64,000 nucleotides of DNA from Deltaproteobacteria bacterium. Its GTDB lineage: Bacteria; UBA10199; JACPAL01; JACOUP01. Position 1 is the first letter of the stretch, and each line of letters begins with the position of its first letter. Shown one piece after another: positions 10,101 to 47,067 of this stretch. The notes below the pieces were generated by a model. The model was not told the origin of the DNA, ran no database searches, and worked only from the letters and a program-made list of their open reading frames with translations. The stretch lies in the NCBI GenBank assembly GCA_016177765.1, contig JACOUP010000008.1, forward strand, positions 641,165 to 705,164, written 5' to 3'. Position numbers and translations under genes: made by a program.

Positions 10101-13100
10101 AAAGGCAGTGGCCTGACCAAATTCGTTGTAGGTATAACGACTTTCAACCGTTTGCTCCCCAACAACCTCCCAAACACGTGTCAGATTCCCCTCGCTATCA
10201 TATTCCAGGTTCCGCTCATGACCGGTTGGTTCGACGGTCTTGACCAGATCATCGGTTTCCAGATTATATTCAAACCGGGTCACATTGCCAAGCGGATCAG
10301 TGAGGGAAACCAGGTTCCCCCGTGCATCGTAGGTGGAACTTAACCGGTTTCCTTTTCGGTCCGTCATCCCGGAACGGAGGCTATCAACATTGTATTCGTA
10401 CAGGATCGGACGGCCCAGCGGATCCTGGCTCTCCACAACCCTTAAAGAATCATCATAGACCTGACGGAGCATCTGACCGAGCGGGTCGGTGACCAAAACC
10501 CGCCCCGGCTGTCCGTCGACCTCGTACAAAATCTGCGTCCGGTGGACCCGGCCGTCTTCCTGGGCCACCACCCTGGAGAGATCATCGTAACTGTTCTTGA
10601 CCAACCTGTTGCCGCGTGGGTCGGTCACCTCCGTCATCTGATGGAGAGGGTCATACCGGTAGGTATAACTTCCGGACCGGACATCAGTGAAACCGGTCAG
10701 GTCCTCTCCTGTGTACCCGAATTGGACCGACCGGCCGGCAGGGTCGGTGACCGAGGCGATCTTGAACTCTTCGTCACTCGCGTAGGCGAAAACAAGGCTC
10801 CTGCCGGTGGAGCTGGTCACCTGTGTCAAACGATTCTTCAGATCGTAAGAGAGGGAGAGTCTATTGCCCTTCCGGTCAGTGACCTGATCCAGACGGCCGT
10901 TGGCCAAGAAGTGAAGGGTGGAATGGTCCTTGGTGGCCAGGGTGAAACCATTGTCATCATTCTTGATCAGTGAAGAAAAGATCCCGGGAGGAGACTGATA
11001 GGTCCCGTCACCGTTCGAGGCGTACGTCTCCGAACGACCATCCCCCCACCGGATCTGTACCGACCCATCCCCCCATTCGGTCGCCACAATATTATAGTTG
11101 TGCGTCCAGCCAAACCCAAGGGGCCCCACATATTTGTCCTGACTATTGTAGGTCCGGGCAAAATTGAGGCCAAATCCGCGCCCTGAAAGGAGCAGGTCTG
11201 TGTGATGGTAGGCGTAATTTCCCGTTGCCGTGTTGACGGGGTCGCTGACATTCTGGACCGTCGGACTCTTGTTGCCGAATTTTTCATTCGCCATAGAGCG
11301 ACAGATGGCGTCACAGTAAGGCGGCTGTTGGACGCTTAAGGTGACAGGAACCGTCGCGGTACCGTCGGATGGATCATTACTGCTGGCCACTTGAAGAACT
11401 GTATCTACGGTTGCCGCTGGTTGAAGGTCTGCGGTGTTAACCGTTACCTGAAGTTGATCGGTCTGGCCGGCCGCCAAGAGATGGGTTGACCGGACAAGAG
11501 TATCAGTTTCGCCGCCGTTTTTCACCACAGTCATCCATGGGGTTGGAGTTGTGGCACTCACGTTGTAGTAAAGTGGACCGGTCCCGGTATTGGTAACCGT
11601 CACCTGCTGGGTCTGGTTGACCGTTCCTTTCAAAACCGTGATCTGGATCGGACTCCCGGTGAAGACAAAATTAGCATTGTCATCCGGGTTGCAGACATCG
11701 TTGATCCCGTCATTCGTATAAAAGGGACATAAATCACTCCCATCCGTAATGCCGTCCCCATCTTCATCATGATTGCAGGCATCCCCATAAGAATCGCGCA
11801 GGGAGAGGTTGGGGCAATCGTTATGACTACAAACATCACCGGTATCATCCTCGGGCGAACCGTCGGCGCAATCACTGTGGTTGCAGGCATCCCCAACATT
11901 ATCCTGGAGCGAGAGGTCGGCGCAATCACTGTGGTTGCAAGGGGCACCAACCGTATCCGGATCGGCACAATCGCCATGATCACAGGGGTCTCCAGCCGCA
12001 TCCTGATTAGAACCATCAGGACAATCGTTATGCACGCAGGCATCCCCCCAGGAGTCGCGCGGGGAAAAATCCGGACAATCGTTATGCACACAAGCATCTC
12101 CAACGGAATCCCTTGCCGTAAAATCGCCGCAGTCGTTGTGGTTGCAGGGATCGCCAATCGAATCATCCGGATCAAAGGGGCAACTGTCGGCAGTGTCAAC
12201 ACGGCCATCGCCGTCTTCATTGTGGTTACAGGCATCGCCGATATTATCCTTGAGACTCCCATTGGGACAAACGTCACGGTTCACATTGATGAAGTGGCTA
12301 CCAGTGGCCCCGTTACTATCATAACAAATGATGCCGATCGAATTCCAACCCGGCACCAGTTGAACATCGGCGTTGAAGGAGGCGGAACCACCGGAAAGGG
12401 ACCGGCTACTGTTCCAACCAGCGGTGCTGTTTTGAACAAGCACCGAACTCAGGTTGCTGTTAGGGTCACTACAAGTCCCGTCGATTGTTACATACGGGGC
12501 TGTTGTTACCGTGCCATCCGATGGTGAAATGATCAGGGCTGTCGGGGGATTGTTGGGGGGTGATTCCGTCGTAAAGGCCCACCTCGTCCAATTACGACTT
12601 TGGGCCTCGCCGTCATACCCAAAAACCTGCCAATAGTAGGTGGTGTTATAGTTAAGGCTGATCCCGTTGGCCGAGGGTTGCCAGGCCGTCGCCGTGCTGT
12701 TGGTCCAACCGTTCATTAAAGGGGAACTGAAGTCGCTATTATCATCCAACTGGATATAGTAATTTACAATGCTGTCGCCCGCATCCGGATCACTACAGGC
12801 CCAATCCAGAGTTACCGATCGGCTGACACCGGTCGCCCCGTGGGAGGGAGAGGTCAGGGTACAGTCATTGGGGGGATTGTTTACAGCAGTCACAGTCAAC
12901 TGCAGATTGTAACTGGGGATCTGACCATCATTGCCATAGTCTTCAACTTTGACAAGATAGGTATCCGGATTTAATCGTCGCGTGATGCGCGAATAGTAGT
13001 TGCCTCCCCCGATGTCGTCATTTGTGGTAATGACACCGCCGGCGGCCTGTTCGAGGGTCAGGACCGTGTCGTAGCCGCTCGCCCCCGATGTCTCGATCGT

Positions 13101-14036
13101 GACATCCAAAGTTGTGTCGAGTCGGAACCAGATCCAGTCAACATCACCCGTCGGAACAATGCTGTGGGTTGTTGTCGTATTGAGAGACTGTGGTTTGGCC
13201 GTTAAGGAAGTATTGTCCGGCTCATACGAATCTTGGGGCAAGACCACATTGATCGAGGCCCAAACCGTTGAAGAACCACCAACCAATATTGTCGACCCCC
13301 CTGAAGTTTTTAACTGCCAGTCATCCCGGTAGGTCCCAGAAGTGGCCGGGGTCCGCATCGAAACACTAAAGACGACGCCGGAACCCGGATTCACGCTAAA
13401 TCCGATCGGGATATTATTAGTACTCGTGGACATCGAACCGCTGACGTAGCGGAGGTAATAGTTGCTCTGCCAGACGGTGGTCCCGTTATTGTAAATCGTC
13501 CACTGCTTGGTAAAATTGGTACTGGTATTAAGGGTAGTTCCGTCGGGATGGGATTCACCACCAAAAGAGGCTGAGGTGAGGTTGGGGACGAGGGAATAGT
13601 TCTGGACATAAGATGCCGGTGGGCCCACATACCTCGTGGTGCTCAGGGTGTTATAACCGCTGGCGCTCACACTCACAGGGTAGGTGTAGTTTGACGGCAA
13701 GGTCAGGGACCAGCTACCGGCCGAATTCGTCGTGGTCATCGCACCGTAGGGACAACTGTTGCCAAAACTAACCGAGGCCCCCGAAATACCAACGCCGCTT
13801 TGGGAGTTGGTTACCGCCCCCCCGATGGTCGACATCTGAACATTGGAACAGGTTAAGGTCTGCGCCTGGAGAGGGACATCTTGATACTCGGAGGAAGGGG
13901 GCAGAGCCGGGGTGGCACTGCCAACAACGGGAGTGGATTCTATCACCTCATCCGATTTTAAATCGAGGTTCTCAAGCCCTCCGCAGGAAGCGAGGAGGAG
14001 AAAAAGGGAGAGGAATAATAAAACCACTTTCCTCAT
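7110..14036 (-). CDS. Giant RHS/YD-repeat lipoprotein with teneurin/Tc-toxin-like architecture. Domain order: lipobox signal, carboxypeptidase-regulatory-like, Ig-like and FN3 domains, PPC domain, thrombospondin type 3-like repeats, RHS plug and YD shell, RHS core, and a ~290-aa uncharacterised C-terminal domain.
   Basis: The MRKVVLLFLSLFLLLASCGG lipobox is preceded by GGGGG 6 nt before ATG 14036. The ORF-track start at 14072 is TTG. The PPC motif (DWIWFRL...GNYYSRI...YNLQLTV), many YD repeats and the terminal core YYDPVAGRFISRDPLGYSAGLNLYAYGKGDPVQNIDPSGN are all present. The C-terminal domain that follows is Gly-zipper rich. Confidence 0.9.
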   Translation of the reverse strand: MRKVVLLFLSLFLLLASCGGLENLDLKSDEVIESTPVVGSATPALPPSSEYQDVPLQAQTLTCSNVQMSTIGGAVTNSQSGVGISGASVSFGNSCPYGAMTTTNSAGSWSLTLPSNYTYPVSVSASGYNTLSTTRYVGPPASYVQNYSLVPNLTSASFGGESHPDGTTLNTSTNFTKQWTIYNNGTTVWQSNYYLRYVSGSMSTSTNNIPIGFSVNPGSGVVFSVSMRTPATSGTYRDDWQLKTSGGSTILVGGSSTVWASINVVLPQDSYEPDNTSLTAKPQSLNTTTTHSIVPTGDVDWIWFRLDTTLDVTIETSGASGYDTVLTLEQAAGGVITTNDDIGGGNYYSRITRRLNPDTYLVKVEDYGNDGQIPSYNLQLTVTAVNNPPNDCTLTSPSHGATGVSRSVTLDWACSDPDAGDSIVNYYIQLDDNSDFSSPLMNGWTNSTATAWQPSANGISLNYNTTYYWQVFGYDGEAQSRNWTRWAFTTESPPNNPPTALIISPSDGTVTTAPYVTIDGTCSDPNSNLSSVLVQNSTAGWNSSRSLSGGSASFNADVQLVPGWNSIGIICYDSNGATGSHFINVNRDVCPNGSLKDNIGDACNHNEDGDGRVDTADSCPFDPDDSIGDPCNHNDCGDFTARDSVGDACVHNDCPDFSPRDSWGDACVHNDCPDGSNQDAAGDPCDHGDCADPDTVGAPCNHSDCADLSLQDNVGDACNHSDCADGSPEDDTGDVCSHNDCPNLSLRDSYGDACNHDEDGDGITDGSDLCPFYTNDGINDVCNPDDNANFVFTGSPIQITVLKGTVNQTQQVTVTNTGTGPLYYNVSATTPTPWMTVVKNGGETDTLVRSTHLLAAGQTDQLQVTVNTADLQPAATVDTVLQVASSNDPSDGTATVPVTLSVQQPPYCDAICRSMANEKFGNKSPTVQNVSDPVNTATGNYAYHHTDLLLSGRGFGLNFARTYNSQDKYVGPLGFGWTHNYNIVATEWGDGSVQIRWGDGRSETYASNGDGTYQSPPGIFSSLIKNDDNGFTLATKDHSTLHFLANGRLDQVTDRKGNRLSLSYDLKNRLTQVTSSTGRSLVFAYASDEEFKIASVTDPAGRSVQFGYTGEDLTGFTDVRSGSYTYRYDPLHQMTEVTDPRGNRLVKNSYDDLSRVVAQEDGRVHRTQILYEVDGQPGRVLVTDPLGQMLRQVYDDSLRVVESQDPLGRPILYEYNVDSLRSGMTDRKGNRLSSTYDARGNLVSLTDPLGNVTRFEYNLETDDLVKTVEPTGHERNLEYDSEGNLTRVWEVVGEQTVESRYTYNEFGQATAFTDPEGQTTTFEYDNQGRLITTTDPTGGVTRQTYDGADRVATMTNPLGQTTTFAYNPDDQLNSVTSPDGSVVRYEYDTNGNPARVIDRNGNAIELRWNANDFMESIQDPLGNQTTFTYDALNRKTAVTDAENRTLRMTYDAAGNLSSMTDPSGRVSSFVYDQEGNVTSRTDSSGQTWSTRYDLLGRLTEATDPLGNRTVRQYDPVSGLLTQMTDAGGHVTQFSYDPLGRLTSLIDSMGQTTSFAYNRTGHLTRLTNAASHETTFTYDSSGRKTGQTNTLGEEEQYFYDLAGRLSRMVDGKGQTTLYDYNTAGHLSTIHLADGTTVDSTYDANGHRLTRTDSLGTARYTYDAAGRPTSFVDPRGFNLSYGYDRTGLLTQLTYPGDHTVQYVYNPSRQLTQVTDWLDQVTHYRYDTGGRLNEVTLPNGLTTTYGYDETSRLTDLTNDKADGSVLSSYHYTLDQLGRRTRVEKEEPLTPWISPEEVGATYNEENELLTLGPLNFDYDLNGNLISGGGISYSFDAKDQLSEVTSAAGTVVLGYDGDGNRTSLTQNGETTQFLVDDNRGLPDVVAEADSAGAIQNYYVYGLGLASQISADGSQVRFYQYDPLGSTVALSDPSGTVTDQYLYDELGRPNRKTGTTANPFQFVGKFGVQNDPTGLYSMRARYYDPVAGRFISRDPLGYSAGLNLYAYGKGDPVQNIDPSGNCLWDGCVVEAIAGACAVGGAFGFVGTGVADIATSIWNWEPSVSSWQTYAGNTIGGCAGGVTTLVTGGNVIVGGAVGGGVSDASTQTLNMATGVQEPFDYNYNSIGMSTVIGGGTGYLSSKIKIGDPKARGNYVEEGTLNNMGLEPNTNGRYKVYAPGQPGWYEPDSLNPQSLQGGTIDLYEIKSGASTLKSAPSGHDGKQLQILTTPGSYLSDTQLKTSYPGTIVPNYYVEYGKGVSPSFQSTVQAAGGTIRNAPFVPNEFYGSLVVNPSANRMVNNLWSTPDLGGGRASGAK
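7113..7995 (-). other. Variable C-terminal, putative toxin/effector domain of the RHS protein.
   Basis: This ~293-aa region lies after the DPxG core boundary. It contains GxxxG-rich stretches (GGCAGGVTTLVTGGNVIVGGAVGGGVS) and matches no catalytic motif I recognise. Confidence 0.6.
11750..12260 (-). repeat. Thrombospondin type 3-like 18-codon repeat array inside the RHS gene.
   Basis: It carries the same D-x-C-N-H-N-D-C repeat family as the downstream gene, here about 9 units. Confidence 0.75.
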
Positions 14037-14111
14037 TAACAAGACCCCCGAGGCGACGGGTGCTTCACCCAAGGCCCGTGGAAGGAGCCTAAGTCAGAGA
14101 AGACACAGTGT

Positions 14112-18967: not shown

Positions 18968-19717
18968 CTAGACCCTCGGCAAAAACAGTTCCAGAAAGTG
19001 TGAGATGGCGGTCTTGGCGGAATTGGCGAATTTCCGGAAGCGGACAAGTTCAAAAATTTTTCCCGGTTCCTGAAGCAGGAACTGGACCGCCCTGATCGGA
19101 CTGATGGACAGATCGGGCCTCAAGAACTGTTCAAAATCGGGGAGCGCCTGCGACACCGGATCGAAAATCGCCCGGACCGCCAGAAACGGCAATTTTTTCC
19201 TGACCGCCCAACGGGCCACCTCGGCCGTTTCCATTTCCAAGGCCAGAACCTCAGCCCGCGTCCCCAAAAACGCCTTTTCGTGTGGTTTCGCAATAATCTT
19301 GTCGACGGTCAACAGAGAGCCCTGATGGTACGGCAGTTTTCCCGCCTCAGCCACTTCTTTGGCCAGATTGAGCCATTTTTGAGTGGATCGGGCCACGACC
19401 TCAACATCCGGATTCAGGACACGGACATCGGTCGCCAAGATGAGATCACCCGAGGTGATGGCCGGTTGAGTCGCCCCGGCACAACCGGTCGAAAGGAGCA
19501 GACTGGGGGCATACCGTTCAAAAAGGAATGAAAGCGCCTTGAAGGTATTCCCCCGCCCCATACCGGTCCGGACGAGGAGAATAGGAACCCGCTGAAACTC
19601 CCCTTCGACGATCGTCAATGGGGGTTGGTTCACGACATGCCGTGGAGTCACCCGCCCGGTAAATCCCTTTAGTTCATCACGCAGGGCGGCGATGATGGCG
19701 ATCGGCTGAGGCGTCAC
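18968..19717 (-). CDS. Nucleoside phosphorylase family protein, MTA/SAH nucleosidase- or futalosine hydrolase (MqnB)-like.
   Basis: IAIIAALRDELKG...STGCAGA...GDLILATDV follows the PNP_UDP_1 family pattern. Confidence 0.55.
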   Translation of the reverse strand: MTPQPIAIIAALRDELKGFTGRVTPRHVVNQPPLTIVEGEFQRVPILLVRTGMGRGNTFKALSFLFERYAPSLLLSTGCAGATQPAITSGDLILATDVRVLNPDVEVVARSTQKWLNLAKEVAEAGKLPYHQGSLLTVDKIIAKPHEKAFLGTRAEVLALEMETAEVARWAVRKKLPFLAVRAIFDPVSQALPDFEQFLRPDLSISPIRAVQFLLQEPGKIFELVRFRKFANSAKTAISHFLELFLPRV

Positions 19718-21288
19718 AAGACTCTCTGGTATTGTTCAATGGTCTGCTTCCAAACCGGCACACCGCAGTAACGATCCCCTTCGGGGCAATACGGGGTCTC
19801 CCCCGCCCTCTTTCGCAGATAGCAGGGGGCCAGGATATGCCCGGCAATCCGGGGATGGATCTCTTTGACCTGACTGATTTCATCGATGGTCGCAAAAAAG
19901 ATTTCCTCTTGGCTGTCGTAACAGGCCCGCGTCCGCCACTTATGGTGGAGATTCAAGAGATCCCCCGACTCCGTGAAGCGGATCGGAAAGGCGTTGGGCA
20001 GGAGGTAGAGCGCCTTTTCCGGTTCAACCCCGTCGTCCAGCAACCGATTGATCTCGGAAAAAAGACCACTCATTGTTTTTTCAAAAAGTTCCCGGGCCGG
20101 GTCAAACTCCTTAACCAGCATCGGGAGGAGATAATCGGGACGACCGGTGTAATGGGTCTTGAGGATCGGTCGCGAAGCGGGCGTCATCCGGTGGCGTTGG
20201 TCCTGAGAATCGGCGGTGTGGGAGATTTTCTTCTGAAAGGTATAATGCGGGTGCACCATCGCCCGGGAGAGTTTGCTCAAGCTGTTAATATTTAAGGTGT
20301 CGCCAAGGTAGGAATTTCGGGCCGGGTCCATCGCGAGGGTGATCGCCTCGTCATCGGAGAGTTTTTCGCGTGTCAGCCCAAAGAGCTGCCGGACCGACTG
20401 GGCCAGACTCTCTTCGGCATTTTTTTTATAGTCCACCAATTTAGAGACATGCCCTTCCAGTGATCGGTCAAACTCGTCGATAAAATTCTGCGAGGAGTTC
20501 AAACGATCGGTGGTTTGAAACTGTTCTAAAATTTTAAACTCCGGTGTCTCCTCCAGCGGCAGGGGGTCTTTCAAATCCTTTTCAAAATCAGGATCGATCT
20601 TTTTCACCTCCTCAACCATCCTCTCCACCACGTAACGCTGTTCTTCTGGCGTATCAAAGAGCTGGCAGAGGCGCCAGTAGCGGATCAGCGTCAAGGCGCT
20701 GACCGAATGATACATATAGGCATGGATCGCCACCGGCAGGAGGTAGCGGGCCACCTCGTACCCCCTTTTCTTCAGGGCGTTTTCGTATTTCCCTGCAACC
20801 TTTTCCCTCTGGGGAAAGATCTTGTAAAACCGACGCCGGATCTCCGGCAAAAGGATCTCAATCATCTGGTTGTATTTTTCCATAAGGCCGTCAACCACCG
20901 TCACATACCGCTCGGCCTGTTTTTCCGAAAGTCCAGGGATGGTGTAATGCCCACGGGCCACCTTCACATACCGCTGACTCACCTGTTCCGAATTATAATA
21001 AGGATGGCTGTGCAAAAAAGACCAGATGAACTGCCGGCTGATCTTGTCCAGGGCAAAGACAAAGGTGGCATGCTGGCGTGTCGTGAGGTGCCCGGCATGG
21101 AGGGTCGATTGGGCGATCTTGTCCCGCAACACTAATGCCTTTTCATCCTTGGTGACGTCGTCAAGGCTCACAATCCCCCTGGAGGAATAACAGGTCCGGG
21201 CGGTCGCCACCGCCAGGTTGTACGGTTGCTCAATCACCCCTTCAAGGGTCACCACCGGCGGTTCGGAAAGGAAGGGGGAATTTGTCAT
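19714..21288 (-). CDS. Divergent ThyX-fold (flavin-dependent thymidylate synthase-like) protein, 525 aa.
   Basis: GHLTTRQHATFVFAL...SRQFIWSFLHSHPYYNSEQVSQRY corresponds to the ThyX segment GHETPFEH.VFTF....ARQ..RHR.......S.RY, but RHR reads HSH. The ORF-track start (21543) would overlap the divergent neighbour. I re-derived the start at MTNSPFL (21288). Confidence 0.5.
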   Translation of the reverse strand: MTNSPFLSEPPVVTLEGVIEQPYNLAVATARTCYSSRGIVSLDDVTKDEKALVLRDKIAQSTLHAGHLTTRQHATFVFALDKISRQFIWSFLHSHPYYNSEQVSQRYVKVARGHYTIPGLSEKQAERYVTVVDGLMEKYNQMIEILLPEIRRRFYKIFPQREKVAGKYENALKKRGYEVARYLLPVAIHAYMYHSVSALTLIRYWRLCQLFDTPEEQRYVVERMVEEVKKIDPDFEKDLKDPLPLEETPEFKILEQFQTTDRLNSSQNFIDEFDRSLEGHVSKLVDYKKNAEESLAQSVRQLFGLTREKLSDDEAITLAMDPARNSYLGDTLNINSLSKLSRAMVHPHYTFQKKISHTADSQDQRHRMTPASRPILKTHYTGRPDYLLPMLVKEFDPARELFEKTMSGLFSEINRLLDDGVEPEKALYLLPNAFPIRFTESGDLLNLHHKWRTRACYDSQEEIFFATIDEISQVKEIHPRIAGHILAPCYLRKRAGETPYCPEGDRYCGVPVWKQTIEQYQRVL

Positions 21289-21399
21289 TGGGGTCGTAAT
21301 CCTAGTCTCGGCTACCGGGATTGTCCACCGGCTATTTTGATGGCAACTTTGCCCCTCAACTGCCGATAATAACGACATCTTTTGAGAAAGGGGTTTACC
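21289..21399. promoter_or_regulatory. Divergent intergenic region between the ThyX-like operon and the DUF4116 operon.
   Basis: This 111 nt lies between two re-derived start codons. It contains TTGATG and GATAAT hexamers, although their spacing is non-ideal. Confidence 0.25.
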
Positions 21400-22125
21400 A
21401 TGGGACTCCAGGGTTTTAAGGATGCTCAGATCCGACAAAAAGTGGAAGCCGCAATCCACCAGGTTTGCGGTGACCCTCACCAAAATTGGTGGTGTGACCC
21501 GGCGACCTACACCAATGCCAACCTCACCGAGGTTGCCAATCATCCGAATCTTTTCTGCTCTTCTGCCTACAAAGATAGCGGGAAGGGGCTCTGCGACATT
21601 TTAAAGGATGGAGATGGGGGAGATCAGGCGTCAGCGGTTGATGATATAATCCAAAGATGGGCCGGAGTCAGTCTCTACATCCAAGGCCTGAGGATCGGCA
21701 CAAGGATCGAGGCGTTCGGGCAGGCCTTTAAAAGCTACGCGGTCCAAATGGCTGATAAAAATTATAAAGCGGACCCTTCCCAAAAAATGAAATACCTTAA
21801 AATGATGGAGGCCTCTCGCCTCGAGATAGAGGCAATCTTAAACGGCCTCGATGCCCCCTTCGGAGAAGCCAGTGATGCGGCAGATTCCATGACCCAACAA
21901 TTCAGGGAGGCCAACCGACCGACCGGTGGTTCAACAGGCTGTCTGTTCCCCCCATTTGCCTCTCTTTTCCGATCGGTCCGGACAACCGCCCCTGATGAGG
22001 GGGTCTCTTTTGAACAGTTGCCGGCAATCGTCCGGAAGGGACTGGACCGACAGAAGGAACCCTTCGATGTCCTCTTGAGGGGAGAGATCCCGGTGCCGGC
22101 CGAGGTCAAAAAACCTGCCCCATGA
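21400..22125 (+). CDS. Hypothetical protein of 241 aa with no recognisable domain.
   Basis: A continuous ORF with AAAGGGG before ATG 21400. Its stop overlaps the next gene's start (ATGA), so the two are translationally coupled. Confidence 0.5.
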   Translation: MGLQGFKDAQIRQKVEAAIHQVCGDPHQNWWCDPATYTNANLTEVANHPNLFCSSAYKDSGKGLCDILKDGDGGDQASAVDDIIQRWAGVSLYIQGLRIGTRIEAFGQAFKSYAVQMADKNYKADPSQKMKYLKMMEASRLEIEAILNGLDAPFGEASDAADSMTQQFREANRPTGGSTGCLFPPFASLFRSVRTTAPDEGVSFEQLPAIVRKGLDRQKEPFDVLLRGEIPVPAEVKKPAP

Positions 22126-25091
22126 GCCTTTACGAAATCAACGGTCAAAGGAGCACTCAGGAAGAGTTCCTCCGGCTGAAGGGGATGTTTGAAGAACTTG
22201 GCCACCCGACAGAAGCGGTCTTTGCTGAAGACCCTGACGGGGTCTCGCGCATCACAAGGACAGAGCTGGACCAACTGCTTGATCCTGATAACGACTCCCA
22301 GCTCACGATCAGGGACTTCGCCGCGATCCCTTGGAGCCAGATGGGAACCTTCCTCCCGAGCATTGACAGGATTCTGAAACGTCACGGCTATTCCATGGCG
22401 GAGAAAATAACCGACTTAAGGACCGGCGTCAAGGTCTGCCGTGTTCTTGAGGACCCGCAGGATTGCTACTTGAGGGCTATACGAATGAACCCGTCGAATA
22501 TCCTCTGGATAGACAAAAAATCAGCGGACGATGGACAGCTCCTGACAACAGTCATTATCAACGTTGACGACCCGGACCTGCTGCAAAAGGCCAAGGAACG
22601 CCTTGCCCAACTGCGGTCCCCGGAGTTTGCCGACCGGCCGTCGGCCGATTTTACCAATGACCGGAAATTCGCCAATGAGGCCTGGGGAATCCTGCGCCGG
22701 GACCGCGAGTTCATGCTCTTGGCCTGCCAAAGATTTCCTGACCTCTTTCTCCGGTTTGCCGATGAAGGGCTTTTGAAAGATGCCGATTTCATACTAACTC
22801 TCGCCGAGGCAGGGACCATTGTTAAGGGCAATGTTGTCGATCCTTCCTTGTGGCAAAATCGGGACTTCGTCCGGAAGATGGTTGGCACATACGGGGGTTA
22901 TCTCAATTACGCCAGGGCCTTTCAGGATGATGACGAGATTGTTTCGATCGCCGTCCATGCCCCTTTTGGAGGGGCCGTCTATTTTTCGGCGAGCGAACGA
23001 TTGAAGGCAAGACCCGATTTTTTTCTGGCGGCCGTCGGGAATCCCGCGATCAACATCCTCTACCAGGCCCCTGATTCAATCTTGAGTGACATCCCAACGA
23101 TGAAGGCGGCGGCCCGGAAGGTCTTTGAGGGGATGGAACAAGACCTCTTCCTCAGACCCTGGAATCCAGAGGAGACCGCTTTATCCCGCTTCCCGGACCG
23201 GATGTTTGAAGATGACACCCTCTTTAGCGTCATTTTAAAGGCGGCCTTTTGGGAGACCACCTCTGCCAACCCCTACCTCTGGCAACACCCCCGCCTTGCC
23301 CTGAGGGCCCTCCGGATGTTTGAAAAGGAAAAAGACGAGGCCCGTACTCTTTATGCCAAGGCCCTCATCAAAAGATTTTCTGAAGACCATGCCTATGCGT
23401 TGGAGTTGGTGCAGATCGATGGGACCGCTCTTAATCTCCTGAATTCAAAGTGGGGGAAAGACGCGGAAATCGCCCTCGCCGCCGTTGGTCAAAACGGCTG
23501 GGCCTACCCGCTTGTTGATGCCGGCTTACGGAAGAGTGACCCAAGGATCCGCAACAGCGCCCTCCAACAGATCTATGGAGATTCTCTCTACGCCGACCCA
23601 AAGAGTTGGGAAGACCCGGGGCCGGTCATCGAGGCATTGGATCTGGATAAAAGGGCAAGACCCTTTGCCGCGGATAGATTGAACGATCCCGATTTTGGCC
23701 GCCGGATGGCGGCGATTGACGGCCTCTCGATCCGCCACCTCCCTTACCCTCTCAGGGAAAACCCGGTGATCTTTAGAGAGGCCATTGCCCAAAATGGACT
23801 GGCCCTCGGACTGGCCCCCCGGTATGACCCCCCCAACGACCACCCGATCGCCACCGAAGAACTCTCGGAGATCGCCATCCGTCAAAACCCGCTTGCCTAC
23901 CGATATGTCGACGACCGTTTTAGAAATGAAAGATTGTTCAGGATCGCCCTGGAAAAATTCTACGGGGCCGGCTCCGTTTATGCCAACCCGACCACCTGGA
24001 AAAATCCTGAGGCGGTGGATCAGGCGATTCAGGACAACCCGGACGCAACCGCCTTTGTTTGGGATTCCCTGCAAGACCGTCGGTTTGCAATGGCCCTTGT
24101 CCAGCGGGATGGCCGGTATTACGATCTCCTCCCCTTCTCTTTACGCGAAGAGCCGGAAATCGCCCTCGCCGCCGCCAAGGATAACGACTCTGCCTTCAAA
24201 TCAATCGACCTGGAGGCGCAGGGGGTGGAATATATCGCCCGTGCCGCCGTGGTCAACACCCGCGCCGTCCTGAAAAATGCAGGTGCGACAAGAGATAAAA
24301 TCTGGAAAACGGTGATTGAGGCCTTGCACGCCGAGGGGGCCTGGTTCCCTCCGGAGATAGAGACGGATGAAAAAAGTTTCCATGCCGGACTCAAAAAACA
24401 GTACGGCATCTCCCATCCGGAACGGTTCCGTTCCTTTGCCACCCTCTACCGACTGATCCAAAACAGGGAAAAACGGGGACCGGAGGACACCAGAGAAACC
24501 GCCCTCCTGATCTACCCGGCAATCGATTGGAACGGGGCCTTTGAGGACTCCCCGGAAATAGAACGGTTTGCGAGAAACGACGGATTCAGGACTATTTATT
24601 TTGAAGCGGATCGCGACGCGGATATTGTCGCCATCCTCGACCACTACACAAACTGGGGCCGTGAACCGGTCCACACCGGTCTCTTGGCGGCGCACTCAAA
24701 TTCCCATGAGCAGGTCTACGGTTATCCTGGTGATGGAGAAGAAGCGGCGCTGGATGTTGATGATTTCGAAAAACCGACCTTTGCCCGTTTTGGTCGGTAT
24801 TTCAAACGCCAGTTGTTGGTCATCGGCTGTTCTGTCGGTCGGGGGCGAGAAAAAGGGATTAATCTGATGAATCCGATGGCGAATCGCCTCCCCCCCAGTG
24901 TGAGACTTTACGGTTCCACAATAGAACAGGGTGTAAAAGAGGTCCGGTTTGCCGGCCTGGAACTGAAACCAAGATGGCCGTACGATGGTTCTGTCTATAC
25001 GACCCGAGGCAGGAGGCAAACCGATCTCCCGCCCAATACCGCTCCTGATACCGCTCCCGACGTGACCCTCATCACTACTGTGTATCGCTGA
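22122..25091 (+). CDS. DUF4116-repeat protein of 989 aa with a C-terminal His/Cys (CHAT/caspase-like?) module.
   Basis: At least 6 repeats of the type ...E(F/I)(A/M)L(L/A)A(V/C)...NG.AL.YA... are present, and the C-terminus carries HTGLLAAHSNSH ... QLLVIGCSVGRG. There is no signal peptide. Confidence 0.65.
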   Translation: MSLYEINGQRSTQEEFLRLKGMFEELGHPTEAVFAEDPDGVSRITRTELDQLLDPDNDSQLTIRDFAAIPWSQMGTFLPSIDRILKRHGYSMAEKITDLRTGVKVCRVLEDPQDCYLRAIRMNPSNILWIDKKSADDGQLLTTVIINVDDPDLLQKAKERLAQLRSPEFADRPSADFTNDRKFANEAWGILRRDREFMLLACQRFPDLFLRFADEGLLKDADFILTLAEAGTIVKGNVVDPSLWQNRDFVRKMVGTYGGYLNYARAFQDDDEIVSIAVHAPFGGAVYFSASERLKARPDFFLAAVGNPAINILYQAPDSILSDIPTMKAAARKVFEGMEQDLFLRPWNPEETALSRFPDRMFEDDTLFSVILKAAFWETTSANPYLWQHPRLALRALRMFEKEKDEARTLYAKALIKRFSEDHAYALELVQIDGTALNLLNSKWGKDAEIALAAVGQNGWAYPLVDAGLRKSDPRIRNSALQQIYGDSLYADPKSWEDPGPVIEALDLDKRARPFAADRLNDPDFGRRMAAIDGLSIRHLPYPLRENPVIFREAIAQNGLALGLAPRYDPPNDHPIATEELSEIAIRQNPLAYRYVDDRFRNERLFRIALEKFYGAGSVYANPTTWKNPEAVDQAIQDNPDATAFVWDSLQDRRFAMALVQRDGRYYDLLPFSLREEPEIALAAAKDNDSAFKSIDLEAQGVEYIARAAVVNTRAVLKNAGATRDKIWKTVIEALHAEGAWFPPEIETDEKSFHAGLKKQYGISHPERFRSFATLYRLIQNREKRGPEDTRETALLIYPAIDWNGAFEDSPEIERFARNDGFRTIYFEADRDADIVAILDHYTNWGREPVHTGLLAAHSNSHEQVYGYPGDGEEAALDVDDFEKPTFARFGRYFKRQLLVIGCSVGRGREKGINLMNPMANRLPPSVRLYGSTIEQGVKEVRFAGLELKPRWPYDGSVYTTRGRRQTDLPPNTAPDTAPDVTLITTVYR

Positions 25092-25149
25092 TCAAAACCT
25101 CACTTTTTCGGGGCAACTCTCCGCGGCTGGTGCCGATAAGGGGGCCGTT

Positions 25150-26109
25150 ATGGGCCCTTCCTGCCAGCATCTTGCCGCTTCCGACTCAATTGCCGCCGGG
25201 CTTTGTGGGCAGGCGGAATTGGCAGGGGCACTCTCAATGGCAGGGGACAACCCTTCCGCCCCCCAAGTCTATCAGGCCTCTATTGATACCTGTGAGGGAG
25301 AGTTCTATCGGGCGGCCCTCCGTCTCAGGACCCAATTTGGTGGGGACCCTTCCTCCGGAGTTGATCACCACTCACTCCCCTTTTGCGCGCGGCTCCAGCA
25401 AGAGTATCAAACAGAGATTCCCTGGCTCCCATCCGGAGACCTCTTCGTCAAAATAAACCAAAAGATAGAAATGGTTGGTTTGGATCTGCAAAGGCAAGGC
25501 CTGGTCCCTGGAACCCCCCTCTTCCGCAGAGATCTTGCCAACAAACTTTACCGCTGGACAAGGCTCCCGGAATCGGAAGGAGGGTTGGGTATCCAAAATG
25601 ATGACCGATTCCAATCACTCCTTGATGGGAGCTGGAGGGAAAAGGATCTGGGTGAGATTATTAAGGTAAAAAAGGTCGTCTGTCTTGAATTCGCCAAACT
25701 CCTCCGGACCCTCTTTTTGATGGCTGGTATCGACTCCCGCTTTGTCCGGGCCCTGGATAAAGAAGGAAACGCGATCGATCATATCGCCATTGAGGTCTTT
25801 TTCGACCCCAATGATCCTGATAACCATGTCGTTATTGATGCTCGGCAAAACCCTGAATGGGTCGCCCAACCCAAAGCGACGGGGTATCAACCGATCACGA
25901 GCCGTGTGGCCCTTTCCTACCACCATTTCAACGCCGTCCAAAGACAACCGGCCAGGGTCGAATCCTGGGTTGGCCCAAAACCGGCCTCCGTCGCTGAGGC
26001 CGAAAGGATTGAGAAAGGACACCTCCTGACCGGGATCCGTCTTAATCCGGATGATCCTGTCGGTCGTCGGCTCTACGACCGGTGGAAGAGTTGGCACAAG
26101 GAAGATTAG
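25150..26109 (+). CDS. Transglutaminase-like (papain-fold cysteine protease) domain protein.
   Basis: VVCLEFAKLLRTLFLMAGIDSRFVR...GNAIDHIAIEVFF...DNHVVIDA shows a Cys, His and Asp triad in canonical spacing. Confidence 0.6.
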   Translation: MGPSCQHLAASDSIAAGLCGQAELAGALSMAGDNPSAPQVYQASIDTCEGEFYRAALRLRTQFGGDPSSGVDHHSLPFCARLQQEYQTEIPWLPSGDLFVKINQKIEMVGLDLQRQGLVPGTPLFRRDLANKLYRWTRLPESEGGLGIQNDDRFQSLLDGSWREKDLGEIIKVKKVVCLEFAKLLRTLFLMAGIDSRFVRALDKEGNAIDHIAIEVFFDPNDPDNHVVIDARQNPEWVAQPKATGYQPITSRVALSYHHFNAVQRQPARVESWVGPKPASVAEAERIEKGHLLTGIRLNPDDPVGRRLYDRWKSWHKED

Positions 26110-26894
26110 GGCTTTTTAGGCAAAAAGGCCTCGAACGGATCCGATCTGCGAGGCTCTTTGTAGTAGTAATAGAGCCTTCCCATAATGTTCACCGTCCGGA
26201 CAGAGGGGTTCTGTTCTGCCACCACGCGCCCCTCCGGAGTGGTTGGTTGAAAGACCATCCCTCTCGCTTCTCCATTGTTAATATCGGCTGTCTTGTATCT
26301 CACAAAAACCCGGAAGGTATTGACAGGGATCTCTTGACCACGAGGGGGAAGTTCCAAGAGGACATCTTGATCGGACGGCGTGACATCAGCACGAACCCTT
26401 GTATTCCCATTAACCCCTTCCATCACGTTTGGCCTATCAGCGACGACCGGCATCTTCCCCCCTCCTTCCAACCCCTTCAGGGTCTCTGCTGGTGGTTTGT
26501 AAGCGGTCCCCGGTTCTCGAACACCCCCTGCCAAGGCCGGTTGTTCAGCGGACTCAAAAACCAGATTTTTCAAATCCCCTGTGGAAGGGTCGTACTGGGC
26601 GGTAGCCTTTGTCCCCAGACTGTAATCAACTGTCTTGGGGCCTGAAAATTCGTTCTGTCCATTCCCCACCTCCCCCCAAAATTGCGCATCCTCGTCATCC
26701 CTCACCTCGGCGTACCGCAGGATCCCTTTGGCATCCTTAAAACCGACATGGTCCCCCGGTTTCAAAAGGCCCATTTCTCCATGCCGATGATAATAAATAA
26801 GCCCGCCATTCTTGTACTGGCGGTATTGATCGCGAGACGGGGCCAAGGCCGACAGCGGCGGCGGTGTTCGGTCCAAACCATTCACAGAACCCAT
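26106..26894 (-). CDS. Hypothetical protein of 262 aa.
   Basis: An ORF with no recognisable motif, convergent on the transglutaminase-like gene with a 4-nt overlap. Confidence 0.45.
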   Translation of the reverse strand: MGSVNGLDRTPPPLSALAPSRDQYRQYKNGGLIYYHRHGEMGLLKPGDHVGFKDAKGILRYAEVRDDEDAQFWGEVGNGQNEFSGPKTVDYSLGTKATAQYDPSTGDLKNLVFESAEQPALAGGVREPGTAYKPPAETLKGLEGGGKMPVVADRPNVMEGVNGNTRVRADVTPSDQDVLLELPPRGQEIPVNTFRVFVRYKTADINNGEARGMVFQPTTPEGRVVAEQNPSVRTVNIMGRLYYYYKEPRRSDPFEAFLPKKP

Positions 26895-27961: not shown

Positions 27962-29485
27962 ATGCGCAAGATCCCCGCGACGATGGCAACCCAGCATCCG
28001 GATAACGCCCAGGCCCCCTATTGGGGAACCTCCCCTTTTATTTCAACGGGAGAAGAGGTGGAAGAGGCGTACCGCTGTTTTGCCGACTTGGGCATCGACG
28101 AATATATGTGGGACTGGGAGGGAAAGTTTGTCGATGAAGCGGTCGTGGACCGTCTTTTGAATCACTACCTCCCCTATTTCCGAAAAAACCAGTTGGGAAG
28201 AGACAAGTTCCTGACCTTTCGGATCCCGAACATCTGGAAGGAAAAGGCCCATCACCGCCTGGCCCGTTCCTACATGGGGATCCTGACCGCCGCCCATACC
28301 GCCCGTGACTATAAAGTCCACTGCCCCCCCATTTTCGAGGTCATCCTGCCGATGACCACCTCACCGGACCAGTTGATCGCGATCCATGAACGGTACCACC
28401 ATGCCTTTCAGTACGAACGGATGGTCTTTGGAGCCCCCGCAACGAAAAAACCGTTTCTTGAAGTGATCCCGCTCATCGAAGGGAGCGTGACCCTCCTTCA
28501 ATCGGGCGAAATTTTGGCGACTTACCTCAAAAAAATTCAAAAACTGTACCGACAAAAAATTTCCACCATCCGTCCCTTTATCGCCCGCTCGGACCCGGCG
28601 CTCGACTCCGGCTATATCCCGGCCCTCCTCGGCGCGAAGGGGGCGTTGTCGGAATATTACCGGTTCGAGGAAAAGAGCGGGGTTCGTGTCTTCCCGATTA
28701 TCGGCGTCGGTTCCCTCCCGTTCCGCGGCGGGTTGAACCCGGATAACCTGGAGAGTTTCATGGAGCTGTATGCCGGTGTCCGCACCGTCACCATTCAATC
28801 CGCCTTCCGGTACGATTACCCGTTGGACAAGGTAAAAAGGGCGATCCGGACCCTCAAGGAAAAACTGCCGCGGCGAAGGGCGGTGATTGTCGACCCCAAA
28901 ATTTTGCAAAGAATGGTTCAGATCGCCCAACTTTTTGCCGCTGAATACCAGCCGGTGATCGAAAATCTGGCTGGAACCATCAATCAACTCTCCCCATTCA
29001 TCCCCCAACATCGGGAGAGGATTCTCCATACCGGCCATTTTGGTTACTCCCGCAAAATCGGCCGGTCAAAAAAGTCTCTCCCGCGGGCGATTACCTTTAC
29101 CGCCACTCTCGCCTCCCTCGGTATCCCCCCTTCTCTTATCGGGACCGGACGAGGGTTGAAGAAGGCCCTTAAGGAACGGCATGGCCCGCTCTTGGACAGG
29201 CTTTTTCCATCGCTTCCTCAAGAATTGCAAGAAGTCGGTGGTTACCTGAACCGGGAAAATCTTGAATTTTTGAGCCGTAAAGACCCGGCCTGGCAATTCA
29301 TAAAAAAAGATGTCTCTTTCCTGGAGTCTTACTTGGGGACCCGGATGGAACCAAAGACAACCGATCAGTATACCCACAGAAACATGACTTCGAATATTTA
29401 TCACCTCTGGCGGGCCGAAAGAGACCCACGGTTGTTAGCCGAAGAGATCCTCCGCGCCGCCCGGGTCCGAAGGAGCCTCGGATGA
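27962..29485 (+). CDS. Phosphoenolpyruvate carboxylase, archaeal type (PepcA family).
   Basis: The N-terminus IPATMATQHPDN and the ~500-aa length match my recollection of the archaeal-type PEPC family. The call rests on memory of that N-terminal motif only. Confidence 0.55.
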   Translation: MRKIPATMATQHPDNAQAPYWGTSPFISTGEEVEEAYRCFADLGIDEYMWDWEGKFVDEAVVDRLLNHYLPYFRKNQLGRDKFLTFRIPNIWKEKAHHRLARSYMGILTAAHTARDYKVHCPPIFEVILPMTTSPDQLIAIHERYHHAFQYERMVFGAPATKKPFLEVIPLIEGSVTLLQSGEILATYLKKIQKLYRQKISTIRPFIARSDPALDSGYIPALLGAKGALSEYYRFEEKSGVRVFPIIGVGSLPFRGGLNPDNLESFMELYAGVRTVTIQSAFRYDYPLDKVKRAIRTLKEKLPRRRAVIVDPKILQRMVQIAQLFAAEYQPVIENLAGTINQLSPFIPQHRERILHTGHFGYSRKIGRSKKSLPRAITFTATLASLGIPPSLIGTGRGLKKALKERHGPLLDRLFPSLPQELQEVGGYLNRENLEFLSRKDPAWQFIKKDVSFLESYLGTRMEPKTTDQYTHRNMTSNIYHLWRAERDPRLLAEEILRAARVRRSLG

Positions 29486-32406: not shown

Positions 32407-35400
32407 ATGGATATTATTCCCCATGAACCGATCGGTCGCTATCCTGTCCTTAAAAAGTTAGGGGGAGGGAGTTTTAGCGAGGTCTATCTCGTTCAGGGGG
32501 AGAGTGGTCCCTGTGCCTTGAAACTCCTCAAAAGTCCGCTTGACCCCCAAAGGGAAAAGGAGATGTTGGCCGATTTCAAAAACGAGTTCACCGTCCTCAA
32601 GAATCTCAACCACCCCCATATCACCCGAATCCTTGACTTTGGGTATGATGAAAAACTGAAGCGGTATTATTTCACCAGTGAATTTATCGAAGGAAAGGAC
32701 CTCTTTGCTGCTACAGAAGGGAGGCTGTTCGAACAGATCCTGGAATGGATCATCCAGGCCCTGAGGGCGCTGGCCTATCTTCACAGTTATGGCATCCATC
32801 ATTTTGACCTGAAGGCGGCCAATCTCCTCGTCGGATCAGACCAAAGTTTGAAGATGATCGACTTCGGTCTCGCCTCGATGAGGCCTCCCGATAAGAGAAT
32901 CGGGACTCCCAGCTACATGGCCCCCGAGATTATCAACAGGGAACGGCCTGACGGAAGAGCCGATCTCTACTCCCTGGGTGTCCTTTTCTACTACTGCCTC
33001 ACCCGTCAAAACCCTTTTCGTGCCAGCGGGGTTGAAGAAACCCTTCAACGCCAACAGATGTTGACCCCTCCTCTTCCCTCAAAGATCAACAAACACCTTC
33101 CCCGATTTTTAGATCCAATCCTCATGCGCCTCCTGGAAAAGAACCCGGCCAACCGTTTCCCGCATGCCACCGAGGTCATCCGGGAGATCAACCATCTCTC
33201 CCCAAAAAAATTCCCCCTGGAAACGGCTGAAACCCTCCTTTCCTATATCCCTGAAGAAGGGCGCTTCATCGGTCGTGAAAGTGAACTCCAGACTCTCAAA
33301 GAAATCTTCGAGGAAATTTATAAAAAACAGCCGTCTCGTTCTCAAATAATCCTGATCTCGGCTGAGAGGGGCTGCGGCAAGAGCCGTCTCCTCAAAGAGA
33401 TGAAATACCATGCACAACTTCAGCAGGTGACCGTTCAGGCCGCTTCCTGCCGTGAAAAAGAACAGATCCCCGACTGGCTGGCACAACTGTCACTGGTTTC
33501 TGAAAAAAACACTGCGCCACGGCTCTTTATTCTGGATGACGCCGAGCTTTTGCAAAATCAGGAGGAGTGGCTCACTTCTTTGAAAGCAAGTCTCTCCCGG
33601 CTTTCTTACCATGCCGGAGAAGCGGTTTCAGGAACCCTTGTCCTGGTGGGTGTTGAGGCCGGAAACCCCTTCCTGCACGATTCGTTGGAGGGATTTGTTG
33701 AAAAAGTGATCCCCTTGCAACCGTTCACCAAAGAGGAGTTCAGCGACTACATTGTTTCCCTCACCGGCCTGGATAACCCACCTCCCCTGTTACGGAGCGG
33801 TCTTTATAAAAGAACGGGTGGCACACCTCTCTTCGTGACTGAAGTTCTCAAATCGCTGATCCGCCAAGGGGCGCTTTTTGATGCCGGTGGGCGGTGGAAG
33901 GAGACAATGTTCGAGGATGTCGGTGTTGACTTTTCCAAAATCGATCTTCCCGAAAATCTCGAAGAGCTCTTGTTCGCCCGTTACCGTACCGAACCCCCTG
34001 AAAGCCAAATACTTCTTCAGGTGATCTCCGTTTTTAGGCGTCCGGTGTCACTCCTTGAAATCGCCGGCGTGGCAGAAACCGAGGATGTCGTTCTTCCCCT
34101 CTCCAGGCTGGTTCAGGGAGGGACCCTCTCAAAGCGGGAGATTGTTTATGAATGGACCAACCTCCTGATGGGGGAGGTGATTTACAAACAGCTTTCCCAA
34201 GAGGAGTCGGGTGCCTGGCATGAAAAAATTGCTGGTTTTCTCGAATCGCAAGGAGGTGAGGTCTCCCCGGAGGAAACGGCCTTTCACAAGGCCCATGTCC
34301 GGGATCCTGAAAAGGCGATCCTGGAAACGATCCGGCTGGGGAATTTTTATCTGGAAAGGGGACGCGGTCACCAGGCCACTCAGGCTTTCGGTTGGGGACT
34401 GCAACGACTGACGCCAAAAGACCCAAGACGGCCTGAATTTCTGATGAAGTTGGGAGAAGCCTATCTGATCCATCAAGAGTACCCGAAGGCCCTTCAGACA
34501 CTCGAAGAGGCCGAGGCCATTTTTACCCGGGAGAATTCAACCAGCAACCGGCGTCTTGACAACCTCCTGAGGATCGGCGGGACCTATTTCAAGACCGGTT
34601 ACAACAAAAAGGCCAAGGAATTTTTCTCCAAGACGAGAAAATTACTCCAAGAATTCAAGGAAGACCACGTCCACCGGTTGATCTGTGCCAACTTTGAAGG
34701 GGCCATTCTCTTCCAGGAGGGAAAACTGAAGGAGGCGGAATCCGTTTTTCTGGAGTCGAGAAAGAGCTGGCATCAGCAATTGTCCACCGCGGAAAAGGCC
34801 AGGGTCACGAACAACGATCTTGGGCTGGTCACCCTCACCGAAGGGAAAACCAATGAGGCCTTGCGGATCTTTCGCGAAGACCTGGACTATTACACCTCCA
34901 TCCAGGATGAATTGCTCATGGCCCGAAATCATTATAATATCGCCGAGGCCTGCTTTGTGCTTCAAGAATACGGGGAAACGATCGACCACTACAAAAAGGT
35001 GATCCCCCTTACCCAAAAGACAGAGAACTGGGAACTCCTGTTCAGGACCTACAATGGTCTGGGAAATGTCTACAACATGATCCACGACGAGGATAACAGC
35101 GCCCAGCATTACCAGCGGGGTCTGGAACTGTCTGAAAAAATGGGGGATCTGAGGAGCGCCTCTTCCATCTCTATCAACCTCGCGATCATTGAAAACAAGC
35201 GAAAAGATTTTCAAAAGGCATTGGGTTCCTTGAAACCGGCCCTCTTTTTCTTCAAGAAATTGCGGCTGAAATCAGCCTTTGACTGGAATTCGCTGGCGCG
35301 GGGACTCCTCGAACAGGCCGATATTGAGCGTCAAACCGGCAACTTTGACAAGGCCCGGGCCTCTCTCGACGAAGCACTTGTCATGGTCCGCCATGCTGAA

Positions 35401-46933: not shown

Positions 46934-46935
46934 TG

Positions 46936-47008
46936 TGGAGCAGGGGGGGATCGAACCCCCGACCTCCTGATTGCGAACCAGGCGCTCTCCCAGCTGAGCT
47001 ACTGCCCC
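46936..47008 (-). tRNA. tRNA-Ala (anticodon CGC).
   Basis: Minus-strand sequence GGGGCAGTAGCTCAGCTGGGAGAGCGCCTGGTTCGCAATCAGGAGGTCGGGGGTTCGATCCCCCCCTGCTCCA. The G3:U70 Ala identity pair is present, and the anticodon loop is TTCGCAA. Confidence 0.85.
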
Positions 47009-47067
47009 TTTCCCTTTACCGATAACTCCCCCACTGATTTTTGACAAGAAAGATGTTGATTCCTCGC

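Follow-up and report, generated by a model that had tools for sequence, protein, structure and literature searches.

A predicted caspase-fold peptidase domain in a DUF4116-repeat protein of an uncultured deltaproteobacterium, with a candidate Ca2+-binding loop and a putative small partner

The stretch of DNA considered here, referred to below as the window, comprises 64,000 nucleotides (positions 641,165 to 705,164 of the forward strand of contig JACOUP010000008.1, assembly GCA_016177765.1) of a metagenome-assembled genome (MAG) deposited as 'Deltaproteobacteria bacterium', and contains four adjacent genes, p1 to p4, the second of which encodes a protein annotated in the deposited record as 'DUF4116 domain-containing' only. 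Our analysis supports the view that the C-terminal region of p2 adopts the caspase fold characteristic of clan CD cysteine peptidases, with H858 and C903 as its invariant dyad, and that p1 and p2 form a two-gene unit. Taking all the evidence together, we consider p2 to be quite probably a cytoplasmic clan CD peptidase mounted on a solenoid scaffold and coupled to Ca2+ through an EF-hand-like element, with p1 as its lineage-specific partner. The analysis shows the limits of the domain, the size of its family, the conservation of the dyad, the predicted fold, the modular architecture and the pattern of gene co-occurrence; we infer the peptidase activity, the control by Ca2+ and the respective roles of the solenoid and of p1. 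The two open reading frames (ORFs) concerned, as given by the ORF call, are:

21400-22125, + strand: p1, 241 aa, fold unassigned
22122-25091, + strand: p2, 989 aa, three-module protein

Results

An invariant His/Cys pair in the C-terminal domain of p2

The features of p2 on which its assignment to clan CD turns are the following:

24399-25016, + strand: predicted clan CD-like cysteine peptidase domain, residues 760-965 (from HMMER relatives, an AlphaFold2 (AF2) model and Foldseek)
24693-24695, + strand: codon of H858, the predicted catalytic His (conserved among relatives; aligns with H186 of Tce1)
24828-24830, + strand: codon of C903, the predicted catalytic Cys (conserved among relatives; aligns with C240 of Tce1)

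An exhaustive HMMER search with residues 760-989 of p2 against 1.84 billion cluster representatives (clusters at 50% identity) retrieved 277 relatives at E<=1e-3, 61 of them at E<=1e-10, thereby revealing a family where a word-index search had shown none: in the latter the C-terminal domain found no relatives and the family profile two proteins only, and a tblastn comparison of the domain with plasmids gave no match. The region held in common is a domain of about 200 aa that lies no more than 40 residues from the C-terminus in 133 of 150 proteins. Judged by its sequence, the C-terminal domain of p2 is part of a sizeable and previously undescribed family from uncultured bacteria.

Column statistics taken over about 150 aligned relatives single out two positions that in p2 are 45 residues apart, namely H858, which sits in HTGLLAAHSNSH, and C903, which sits in LLVIGCSVG. 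The former column holds His in 147 of 148 aligned relatives, followed by Gly (133), Ser (11) or Ala (4), and the latter holds Cys in every one of 149, preceded in 148 of them by S, A or G (S 102, A 35, G 11). D802 is kept in 148 of 150 relatives, and N804, E828, D881, N914 and N917 are invariant or nearly so. The consensus motifs of the family read LxLAGHG and LxSCSxGxG; at the corresponding places p2 has A-A-H-S for A/G-G-H-G and V-I-G-C-S-V-G-R-G for L-x-S-C-S-x-G-x-G. Conservation of the H858/C903 pair is far beyond chance.

A caspase-like fold and its nearest relatives

When modeled with an alignment of 49 sequences, the domain attained a pLDDT of 91.4 and a pTM of 0.88 in AF2, the single-sequence model having a pLDDT of 32. 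The core of the model is of the beta-alpha-beta type, with the His placed after strand 3 and the Cys after strand 4 (in the numbering of the model, H858 follows the strand at 91-97 and C903 the strand at 135-142), and the C-terminus is made up of three short beta-strands. Foldseek comparison with the PDB returned as best matches caspases-11, -7 and -8 together with chain 9qpe_G, which is Tce1, at E-values from 1e-4 to 1e-3 and probabilities of 0.97-1.00; all matches below E=0.001 belonged to clan CD with the exception of one unrelated chain, and lower in the list, to E~0.01, came caspases-4/3/1, legumain, GPI8 (the GPI transamidase) and MALT1. Since all TM-scores lay around 0.4, the support from the fold is moderate and not strong. 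In a comparison with viral models, giant-virus caspases, metacaspases and one C11 protease matched the p2 domain.

The Pfam matches of the relatives point in the same direction. Among 49 of them, DUF4347 was matched by 22 (best E=8e-9), CHAT by 10 (best 4.2e-5) and Peptidase_C14 by 6 (best 8.7e-5), and the DUF4347 gathering score of 24.6 bits was reached by P0013 (26.3), P0115 (25.2) and P0009 (24.6). Peptidase C80 was represented neither by a structure in the top 50 Foldseek matches nor by a match among the 25 Pfam families listed. The p2 protein itself remains below the gathering cut-offs of DUF4347 (PF14252), CHAT and Peptidase C14, none of which it matches at all; given that relatives do reach the PF14252 cut-off, p2 is best described as belonging to a divergent sister family whose nearest neighbor is DUF4347, and not as a formal member of DUF4347, CHAT, C14 or C80.

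Proximity to DUF4347 has a structural counterpart in Tce1 (PA0256), which like Tce2 is a putative cysteine-protease effector of the H3 type VI secretion system (T6SS) of Pseudomonas aeruginosa (PDB 9qpe; PMC13323088), and whose H186/C240 dyad was proposed by structural comparison with the cysteine protease domain of TcdB (PMC13323088). Among PDB sequences the family profile matches a single solved chain, that of Tce1 (E=0.16), and in this match the His-Gly...Cys dyads align residue for residue, H858 and C903 being paired with H186 and C240; Tce1 also has the best target-normalized TM-score (0.53), and the domain measures about 200 aa in both proteins. The two differ in that the p2 domain stands C-terminal to an EF-hand-like module and a DUF4116 solenoid in a chain of about 1000 aa, whereas Tce1 is a small cargo loaded into Hcp, and in that p2 lacks both a PF14252 match and a type VI secretion context.

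A comparable balance of likeness and difference holds for the caspases, metacaspases and orthocaspases (C14), legumain (C13), GPI8 and MALT1, which dominate the Foldseek matches. As in these enzymes, p2 has a His and then a Cys, each placed after a hydrophobic strand, the Cys being preceded by a small residue, and its invariant D802 follows strand 1, a position that we take to be that of the S1-pocket residues of clan CD; unlike in these enzymes, neither a p10-like subunit nor an intersubunit linker is evident, identities amount to 10-15% and the C14 threshold is missed. Residue conservation, the fold search, the Pfam matches of the relatives and the alignment with the Tce1 dyad thus jointly support the assignment of residues ~760-965 of p2 to a predicted caspase-fold (clan CD) module with H858/C903 as its invariant dyad.

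Modular architecture of p2 and of its family

The remaining two modules of p2 lie N-terminal to the domain described above:

22122-22421, + strand: N-terminal module of ~100 aa, common to 59 family representatives (residues 1-110 correspond to 22122-22451)
22281-22316, + strand: EF-hand/dockerin-like loop DPDNDSQLTIRD, residues 54-65
22701-24215, + strand: DUF4116 repeat region, residues ~194-698 (from Pfam PF13475 and a local repeat hidden Markov model, HMM)

The Pfam model of DUF4116 (PF13475), a repeat that has been modeled as an alpha-solenoid (PMC8078820), matches p2 in seven stretches with E=5e-36 and 122.4 bits, the cut-off being 24.9. According to the local repeat HMM, DUF4116-like repeats are present in about 90 of about 150 family representatives, and in the remaining representatives their place is taken by helical repeats of the HEAT, TPR or MgtE_N/FliG-like kind. 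The N-terminal module of the p2 type, found in 59 of the ~150 representatives, is built around a loop of the form D-x-N/D-x-D/N-G-x-x-x-x-x-D-F, with Asp at position 12. A strict EF-loop pattern occurs in 35 of 150 N-termini as compared to 2.9+/-1.6 in shuffled sequences; in Pfam, 7 of 30 N-terminal modules match EF-hand_7 and 2 of 30 match dockerin, and the profile of the module retrieves calmodulin and other EF-hand proteins from the PDB at E=2e-10 to 1e-7. The usual build of the family, as these matches indicate, is hence an N-terminal EF-hand-like, putatively Ca2+-binding loop followed by an alpha-solenoid and a C-terminal clan CD domain. A far larger metagenomic member, P0007 (6180 aa), contains two copies of the protease domain (residues 5146-5367 and 5833-6071), embedded among HEAT-like repeats and long linkers rich in Pro, Ser and Thr.

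Long alpha-helical repeat scaffolds followed by a C-terminal caspase-fold protease are known from TPR-CHAT (Csx29, Craspase), from CHAT proteins and from separase. The p2 family, in which the solenoid that precedes the predicted protease domain is sometimes of the HEAT or TPR type, is reminiscent of this arrangement, and the CHAT matches of ten relatives are in keeping with it; on the other hand, no CRISPR or other partner system is found in the neighborhoods of the p2 family, p2 misses the CHAT threshold, and CHAT proteins and separase are not known to have an EF-hand module. The association of a cysteine protease with EF-hand-type Ca2+-binding elements in one polypeptide is in turn a property of calpain (clan CA) and of Ca2+-dependent metacaspases, to which the p2 family may be likened in that it joins a putative protease and an EF-hand-type element in one chain. 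Calpain, however, combines a papain fold with a penta-EF-hand, whereas p2 would combine a caspase fold with a single N-terminal EF-hand/dockerin-like loop (Asp12). In the portions of the DUF4116 literature that a full-text search brought up there is no mention of a protease attached to these repeats, and the corresponding portions of the DUF4347 literature do not treat this domain within an EF-hand/solenoid architecture; the combination of EF-hand, DUF4116 solenoid and caspase-fold protease appears to be undescribed.

Gene organization and the pairing of p1 with p2

The stop codon of p1 and the start codon of p2 share the tetranucleotide ATGA at 22122-25, and a Shine-Dalgarno-like AAAGGGG stands 5' of p1. 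A protein search found P0005 (939 aa, 40% identity), from another Deltaproteobacteria MAG, as the sole full-length orthologue of p2, and two metagenome scans yielded no close orthologues; a genome scan with a subgroup alignment gave two loci only and added nothing useful. At the locus encoding P0005 (L001), a 190-aa gene located directly upstream of it and overlapping it by 4 bp encodes a homologue of p1 (24% identity, pairwise E=7e-14), with recG upstream and glpX downstream, that is, in a context that differs from that of the window. As P0005 likewise comes with a coupled p1 homologue while its other neighbors differ, p1-p2 behaves as a mobile two-gene unit, whose existence is supported by this one locus besides the window. 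When p1, p3 and p4 were compared by tblastn (E<=0.1) with 14 related loci representing 11 distinct places, namely L001 and the loci of ten further family members, only p1 gave a match and only in L001; p1 is most likely a lineage-specific partner of p2. It matches no family in Pfam, NCBIfam, PADLOC or PHROG.

The relatives of p2 sit singly among mostly housekeeping genes, including those for glutamate synthase, SRP54, methylmalonyl-CoA mutase, urocanase and trkA, among others. L001 (P0005) and L002/L003 (P0006) have in common polA and a patatin-like gene in the vicinity of the protease gene, which suggests residual synteny between the two uncultured lineages, and L002 has PemK/RHH and Phd toxin-antitoxin genes nearby.

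The neighboring genes p3 and p4

Downstream of p2 the ORF call gives two further genes, and p3 contains three residues in the order of a transglutaminase triad:

25150-26109, + strand: p3, 319 aa, probable transglutaminase-like core, orphan
25681 / 25780 / 25837, + strand: C178 / H211 / D230 of p3
26106-26894, - strand: p4, 262 aa, orphan, convergent with p3

The gap between p2 and p3 measures 58 bp and contains no predicted terminator, a Shine-Dalgarno-like AAGGGGG stands 5' of p3, and p4 converges on p3 with an overlap of 4 bp at the p3 stop. The two best Pfam matches of p3 are Transglut_core (PF01841) and DUF553 (E=0.0027); the former scores 19.6 bits when all of p3 is used and 22.3 bits (E=1.7e-4) when the core is taken by itself. 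The match takes in H211 and C178, the latter opening a hydrophobic helix-like segment, and D230 is located 19 residues past the His. The likeness to transglutaminase-like proteases (PF01841, DUF553) thus lies in the Cys/His segment, and p3 differs from them in falling short of the curated cut-off (22.3 versus 23 bits), which leaves a transglutaminase-like (papain-like) fold plausible. A word-index protein search found no homologue of p3 other than itself, tblastn found none in plasmids or in the related loci, and a sequence search of the PDB returned no transglutaminase. A lipoprotein or other signal peptide in p3 (around AAGLC) was considered and discarded, as a Leu at -1 is at odds with a lipobox, a charged n-region is missing and the N-terminus is only weakly hydrophobic. 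For p4, neither a family match (Pfam, NCBIfam, PADLOC, PHROG) nor a homologue in the 14 loci or the window was found. Both p3 and p4 are neighboring orphan genes whose only observed link to p1-p2 is adjacency.

The four ORFs are identical to the deposited proteins MBI1909627-30 (locus tags HYS22_05610-05625), each of which forms a singleton cluster at 90% identity. In all four the annotated frame has the top codon-usage score when the codon table is derived from the housekeeping genes on either side, which themselves score higher. A preceding reading of the same DNA from its letters alone (the sequence-only reading) had described these ORFs and the ATGA overlap of p1 and p2, had identified p2 as a DUF4116-repeat protein with a His and a Cys about 45 residues apart in a module resembling caspase or CHAT proteases, and had noted that the 262-aa ORF is convergent and that none of the four proteins has a signal peptide; all of this holds, including the absence of signal-peptide-like or transmembrane-like segments in p1-p4. 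The transglutaminase core of p3, which the same reading had called clear, stands as regards the presence and order of C178, H211 and D230 and the identity of the two best Pfam matches, but not as regards its clarity, with a score that stays under the cut-off. The N-terminal EF-hand-like module of p2 went unmentioned in that reading.

Surroundings of the locus

On one side the four genes are flanked by rpe, fmt, def, priA, a response regulator, a phosphorylase and thyX, and on the other by an EamA transporter, an archaeal-type PEP carboxylase and a NUDIX hydrolase. With its two Thy1 stretches, the thyX ORF (19714-21543, - strand, 609 aa) gives the impression of a tandem duplication or a fusion. 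If the longest-ORF start is taken, thyX overlaps the beginning of p1, which is encoded on the other strand; the true start of thyX probably lies further downstream, with the two genes divergent. The GC content of the window is unremarkable, promoter and terminator scans at the locus were uninformative, and no paralogues of p1-p4 occur within the window. Nothing meaningful was obtained for p1-p4 from PHROGs, PADLOC or NCBIfam, and in PADLOC no family was matched at E<=1.

Several other genes of the window deserve description. The PEP carboxylase (27962-29485, + strand) matches PEPcase_2 at E=2.5e-134, an archaeal-type enzyme in a bacterial MAG. At 32407-36102 (+ strand) a 1231-aa protein combines a Ser/Thr protein kinase, an AAA_16 NTPase and long TPR arrays in a STAND-like signaling architecture. 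A 350-aa ORF at 46163-47215 (- strand) overlaps a tRNA-Ala (46935-47008, - strand) and is probably over-extended, and a 719-aa ORF at 52030-54189 (- strand) has no Pfam match at E<=1e-5. A protein of 2320 aa (7110-14072, - strand) has 13 RHS repeats, a DUF6531 domain, a YD-shell match and Ig-like/TSP3 domains, and the ORF directly after it (3743-7105, - strand, 1120 aa) contains RHS as well as TSP3 repeats. Together they resemble a giant RHS protein of the polymorphic-toxin kind that may be split in two ORFs.

Discussion

The interpretation of p2 as a solenoid-borne clan CD peptidase with a Ca2+-coupling loop and a dedicated partner has to be weighed against several observations that speak the other way. 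In p2 as well as in its orthologue, the near-invariant Gly after the His is replaced by Ser or Ala and the Gly before it by Ala, substitutions around H858 that might weaken the oxyanion hole. In addition, with the threshold relaxed to E<=1, p2 itself still has no match among the clan CD models of Pfam. The loop DPDNDSQLTIRD of p2 keeps D1, D3, D5 and D12, yet has Ser in place of Gly at position 6 and scores weakly with EF-hand_7 (E=0.073); Ser6, Asp12 and this weak score render Ca2+ binding by p2 uncertain. Lastly, the link between p1 and p2 is drawn from one locus in addition to the window.

Other explanations may be entertained for the same data. The sequence-only reading had proposed that p1-p4 form a cluster acting as one proteolytic, signaling, effector or defense module that unites caspase-like and transglutaminase-like proteases, a proposal that could appeal to the adjacency of the genes, to the 58 bp without predicted terminator that separate p2 from p3 (although p3 has a Shine-Dalgarno-like sequence of its own) and to the cysteine-protease-type motifs in both p2 and p3. 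However, no homologue of p3 or p4 exists in the 11 distinct loci encoding p2 relatives, including L001, where it is glpX that follows the p2 orthologue; no transglutaminase-like gene neighbors any relative in the loci examined; only p1 recurs, at one locus; there is no PADLOC match; and the flanks are of the housekeeping kind (thyX, priA, def, fmt, EamA, PEP carboxylase). Because p3 and p4 are not co-conserved with p2, the point that the sequence-only reading had itself named as decisive, the four-gene module is largely refuted as anything beyond adjacency, and we now regard it as very unlikely. A different proposal, which we also consider unlikely, makes p2 a secreted or injected effector whose clan CD domain would either serve autoprocessing, in the manner of the C80 cysteine protease domains (CPDs) of MARTX and TcdA/B, or be a toxin similar to Tce1/Tce2, alongside or releasing eukaryote-like repeats in a host or prey cell. 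Three short beta-strands close the p2 model, much as a beta-flap closes the CPDs, and a giant RHS-repeat protein is encoded ~7 kb away; moreover, Tce1 (DUF4347), the nearest studied relative, is an Hcp3-bound type VI secretion effector, and the toxicity of Tce2 to yeast depends on its Cys (PMC13323088). Yet p2 has no signal peptide, no Hcp, VgrG, PAAR or other T6SS component was found in Pfam scans of 24 of the larger ORFs of the window, and the lumen of Hcp, which encloses a Tce1 domain of ~200 residues, would hardly seem able to accommodate a protein of 989 aa. The solitary position of p2 relatives among housekeeping genes and the lack of C80 among the top 50 Foldseek matches and the 25 Pfam families listed likewise argue against an effector.

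Two further alternatives concern the chemistry of the domain. To the eye, the G-C-S-V-G of p2 fits the G-x-S-x-G nucleophile elbow of a serine alpha/beta-hydrolase, and one relative has a marginal Abhydrolase_5 match (E=0.078), but just 11 of 149 family sequences have the first Gly and the Ser is replaced in 26 of 149 whereas the Cys is retained in all 149, and the top fold matches are caspase-fold proteins and not alpha/beta hydrolases; the serine-hydrolase explanation was rejected on the strength of this conservation and strikes us as barely credible. The domain could also be a transpeptidase or ligase, such as GPI8, legumain-type ligases or PorU, or a non-catalytic binding module. GPI transamidase and legumain do figure among the fold matches, and the chemistry of a His/Cys dyad does not tell hydrolysis from transpeptidation; nevertheless, the neighborhoods examined show neither an acceptor-substrate system nor a sorting-signal partner, and the invariance of the dyad argues against a pseudo-enzyme. 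We hold this alternative to be quite improbable.

If p2 is indeed a clan CD peptidase, catalysis would be performed within the cell by the H858/C903 dyad. The invariant D802, which comes right behind strand 1, is a candidate for the S1 pocket and, if it lies there, would favor basic residues at P1, a preference that a study on orthocaspases reports for those enzymes (PMC6426788). By analogy with separase and TPR-CHAT proteases, the DUF4116 solenoid would most likely act as a scaffold that recruits or excludes substrates or that is autoinhibitory, and by analogy with calpains and metacaspases the N-terminal EF-hand-like loop would most likely couple folding or activity to Ca2+. Translational coupling may ensure that p1 is made in fixed proportion with p2, for which it would be a candidate substrate, inhibitor or chaperone; a precedent is the prokaryotic caspase homologue MaOC1, which cleaves an antitoxin encoded by an adjacent gene (PMC7935541). 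Extending these ideas to the whole family (at least 277 clusters at 50% identity), one might envisage a group of bacterial Ca2+-sensing, solenoid-tethered caspase-fold proteases that constitutes the clan CD counterpart of calpain/metacaspase signaling, with the EF-hand gating the proteolytic switch and, in the lineage of the window, p1 as dedicated substrate or inhibitor, a generalization that we offer tentatively and hold to be doubtful as it stands.

These findings assign a probable clan CD cysteine peptidase function, as indicated by sequence and model, to the C-terminus of p2 and to hundreds of unnamed metagenomic relatives, and they link the family to DUF4347, whose first structural and functional study dates from 2026 (Tce1/Tce2; PMC13323088). 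The DUF4116 repeats, for their part, would gain a concrete context as a protease scaffold. In particular, the recurrent architecture of EF-hand, solenoid and caspase fold points to Ca2+-controlled proteolysis in bacteria, of which there are to our knowledge very few examples. Were both the activity and its control by Ca2+ to prove true, p2 and its relatives would represent a new family of regulated proteases for uncultured 'Deltaproteobacteria'-type lineages, and p1-p2 would offer a tractable two-gene pair in which to find a substrate.

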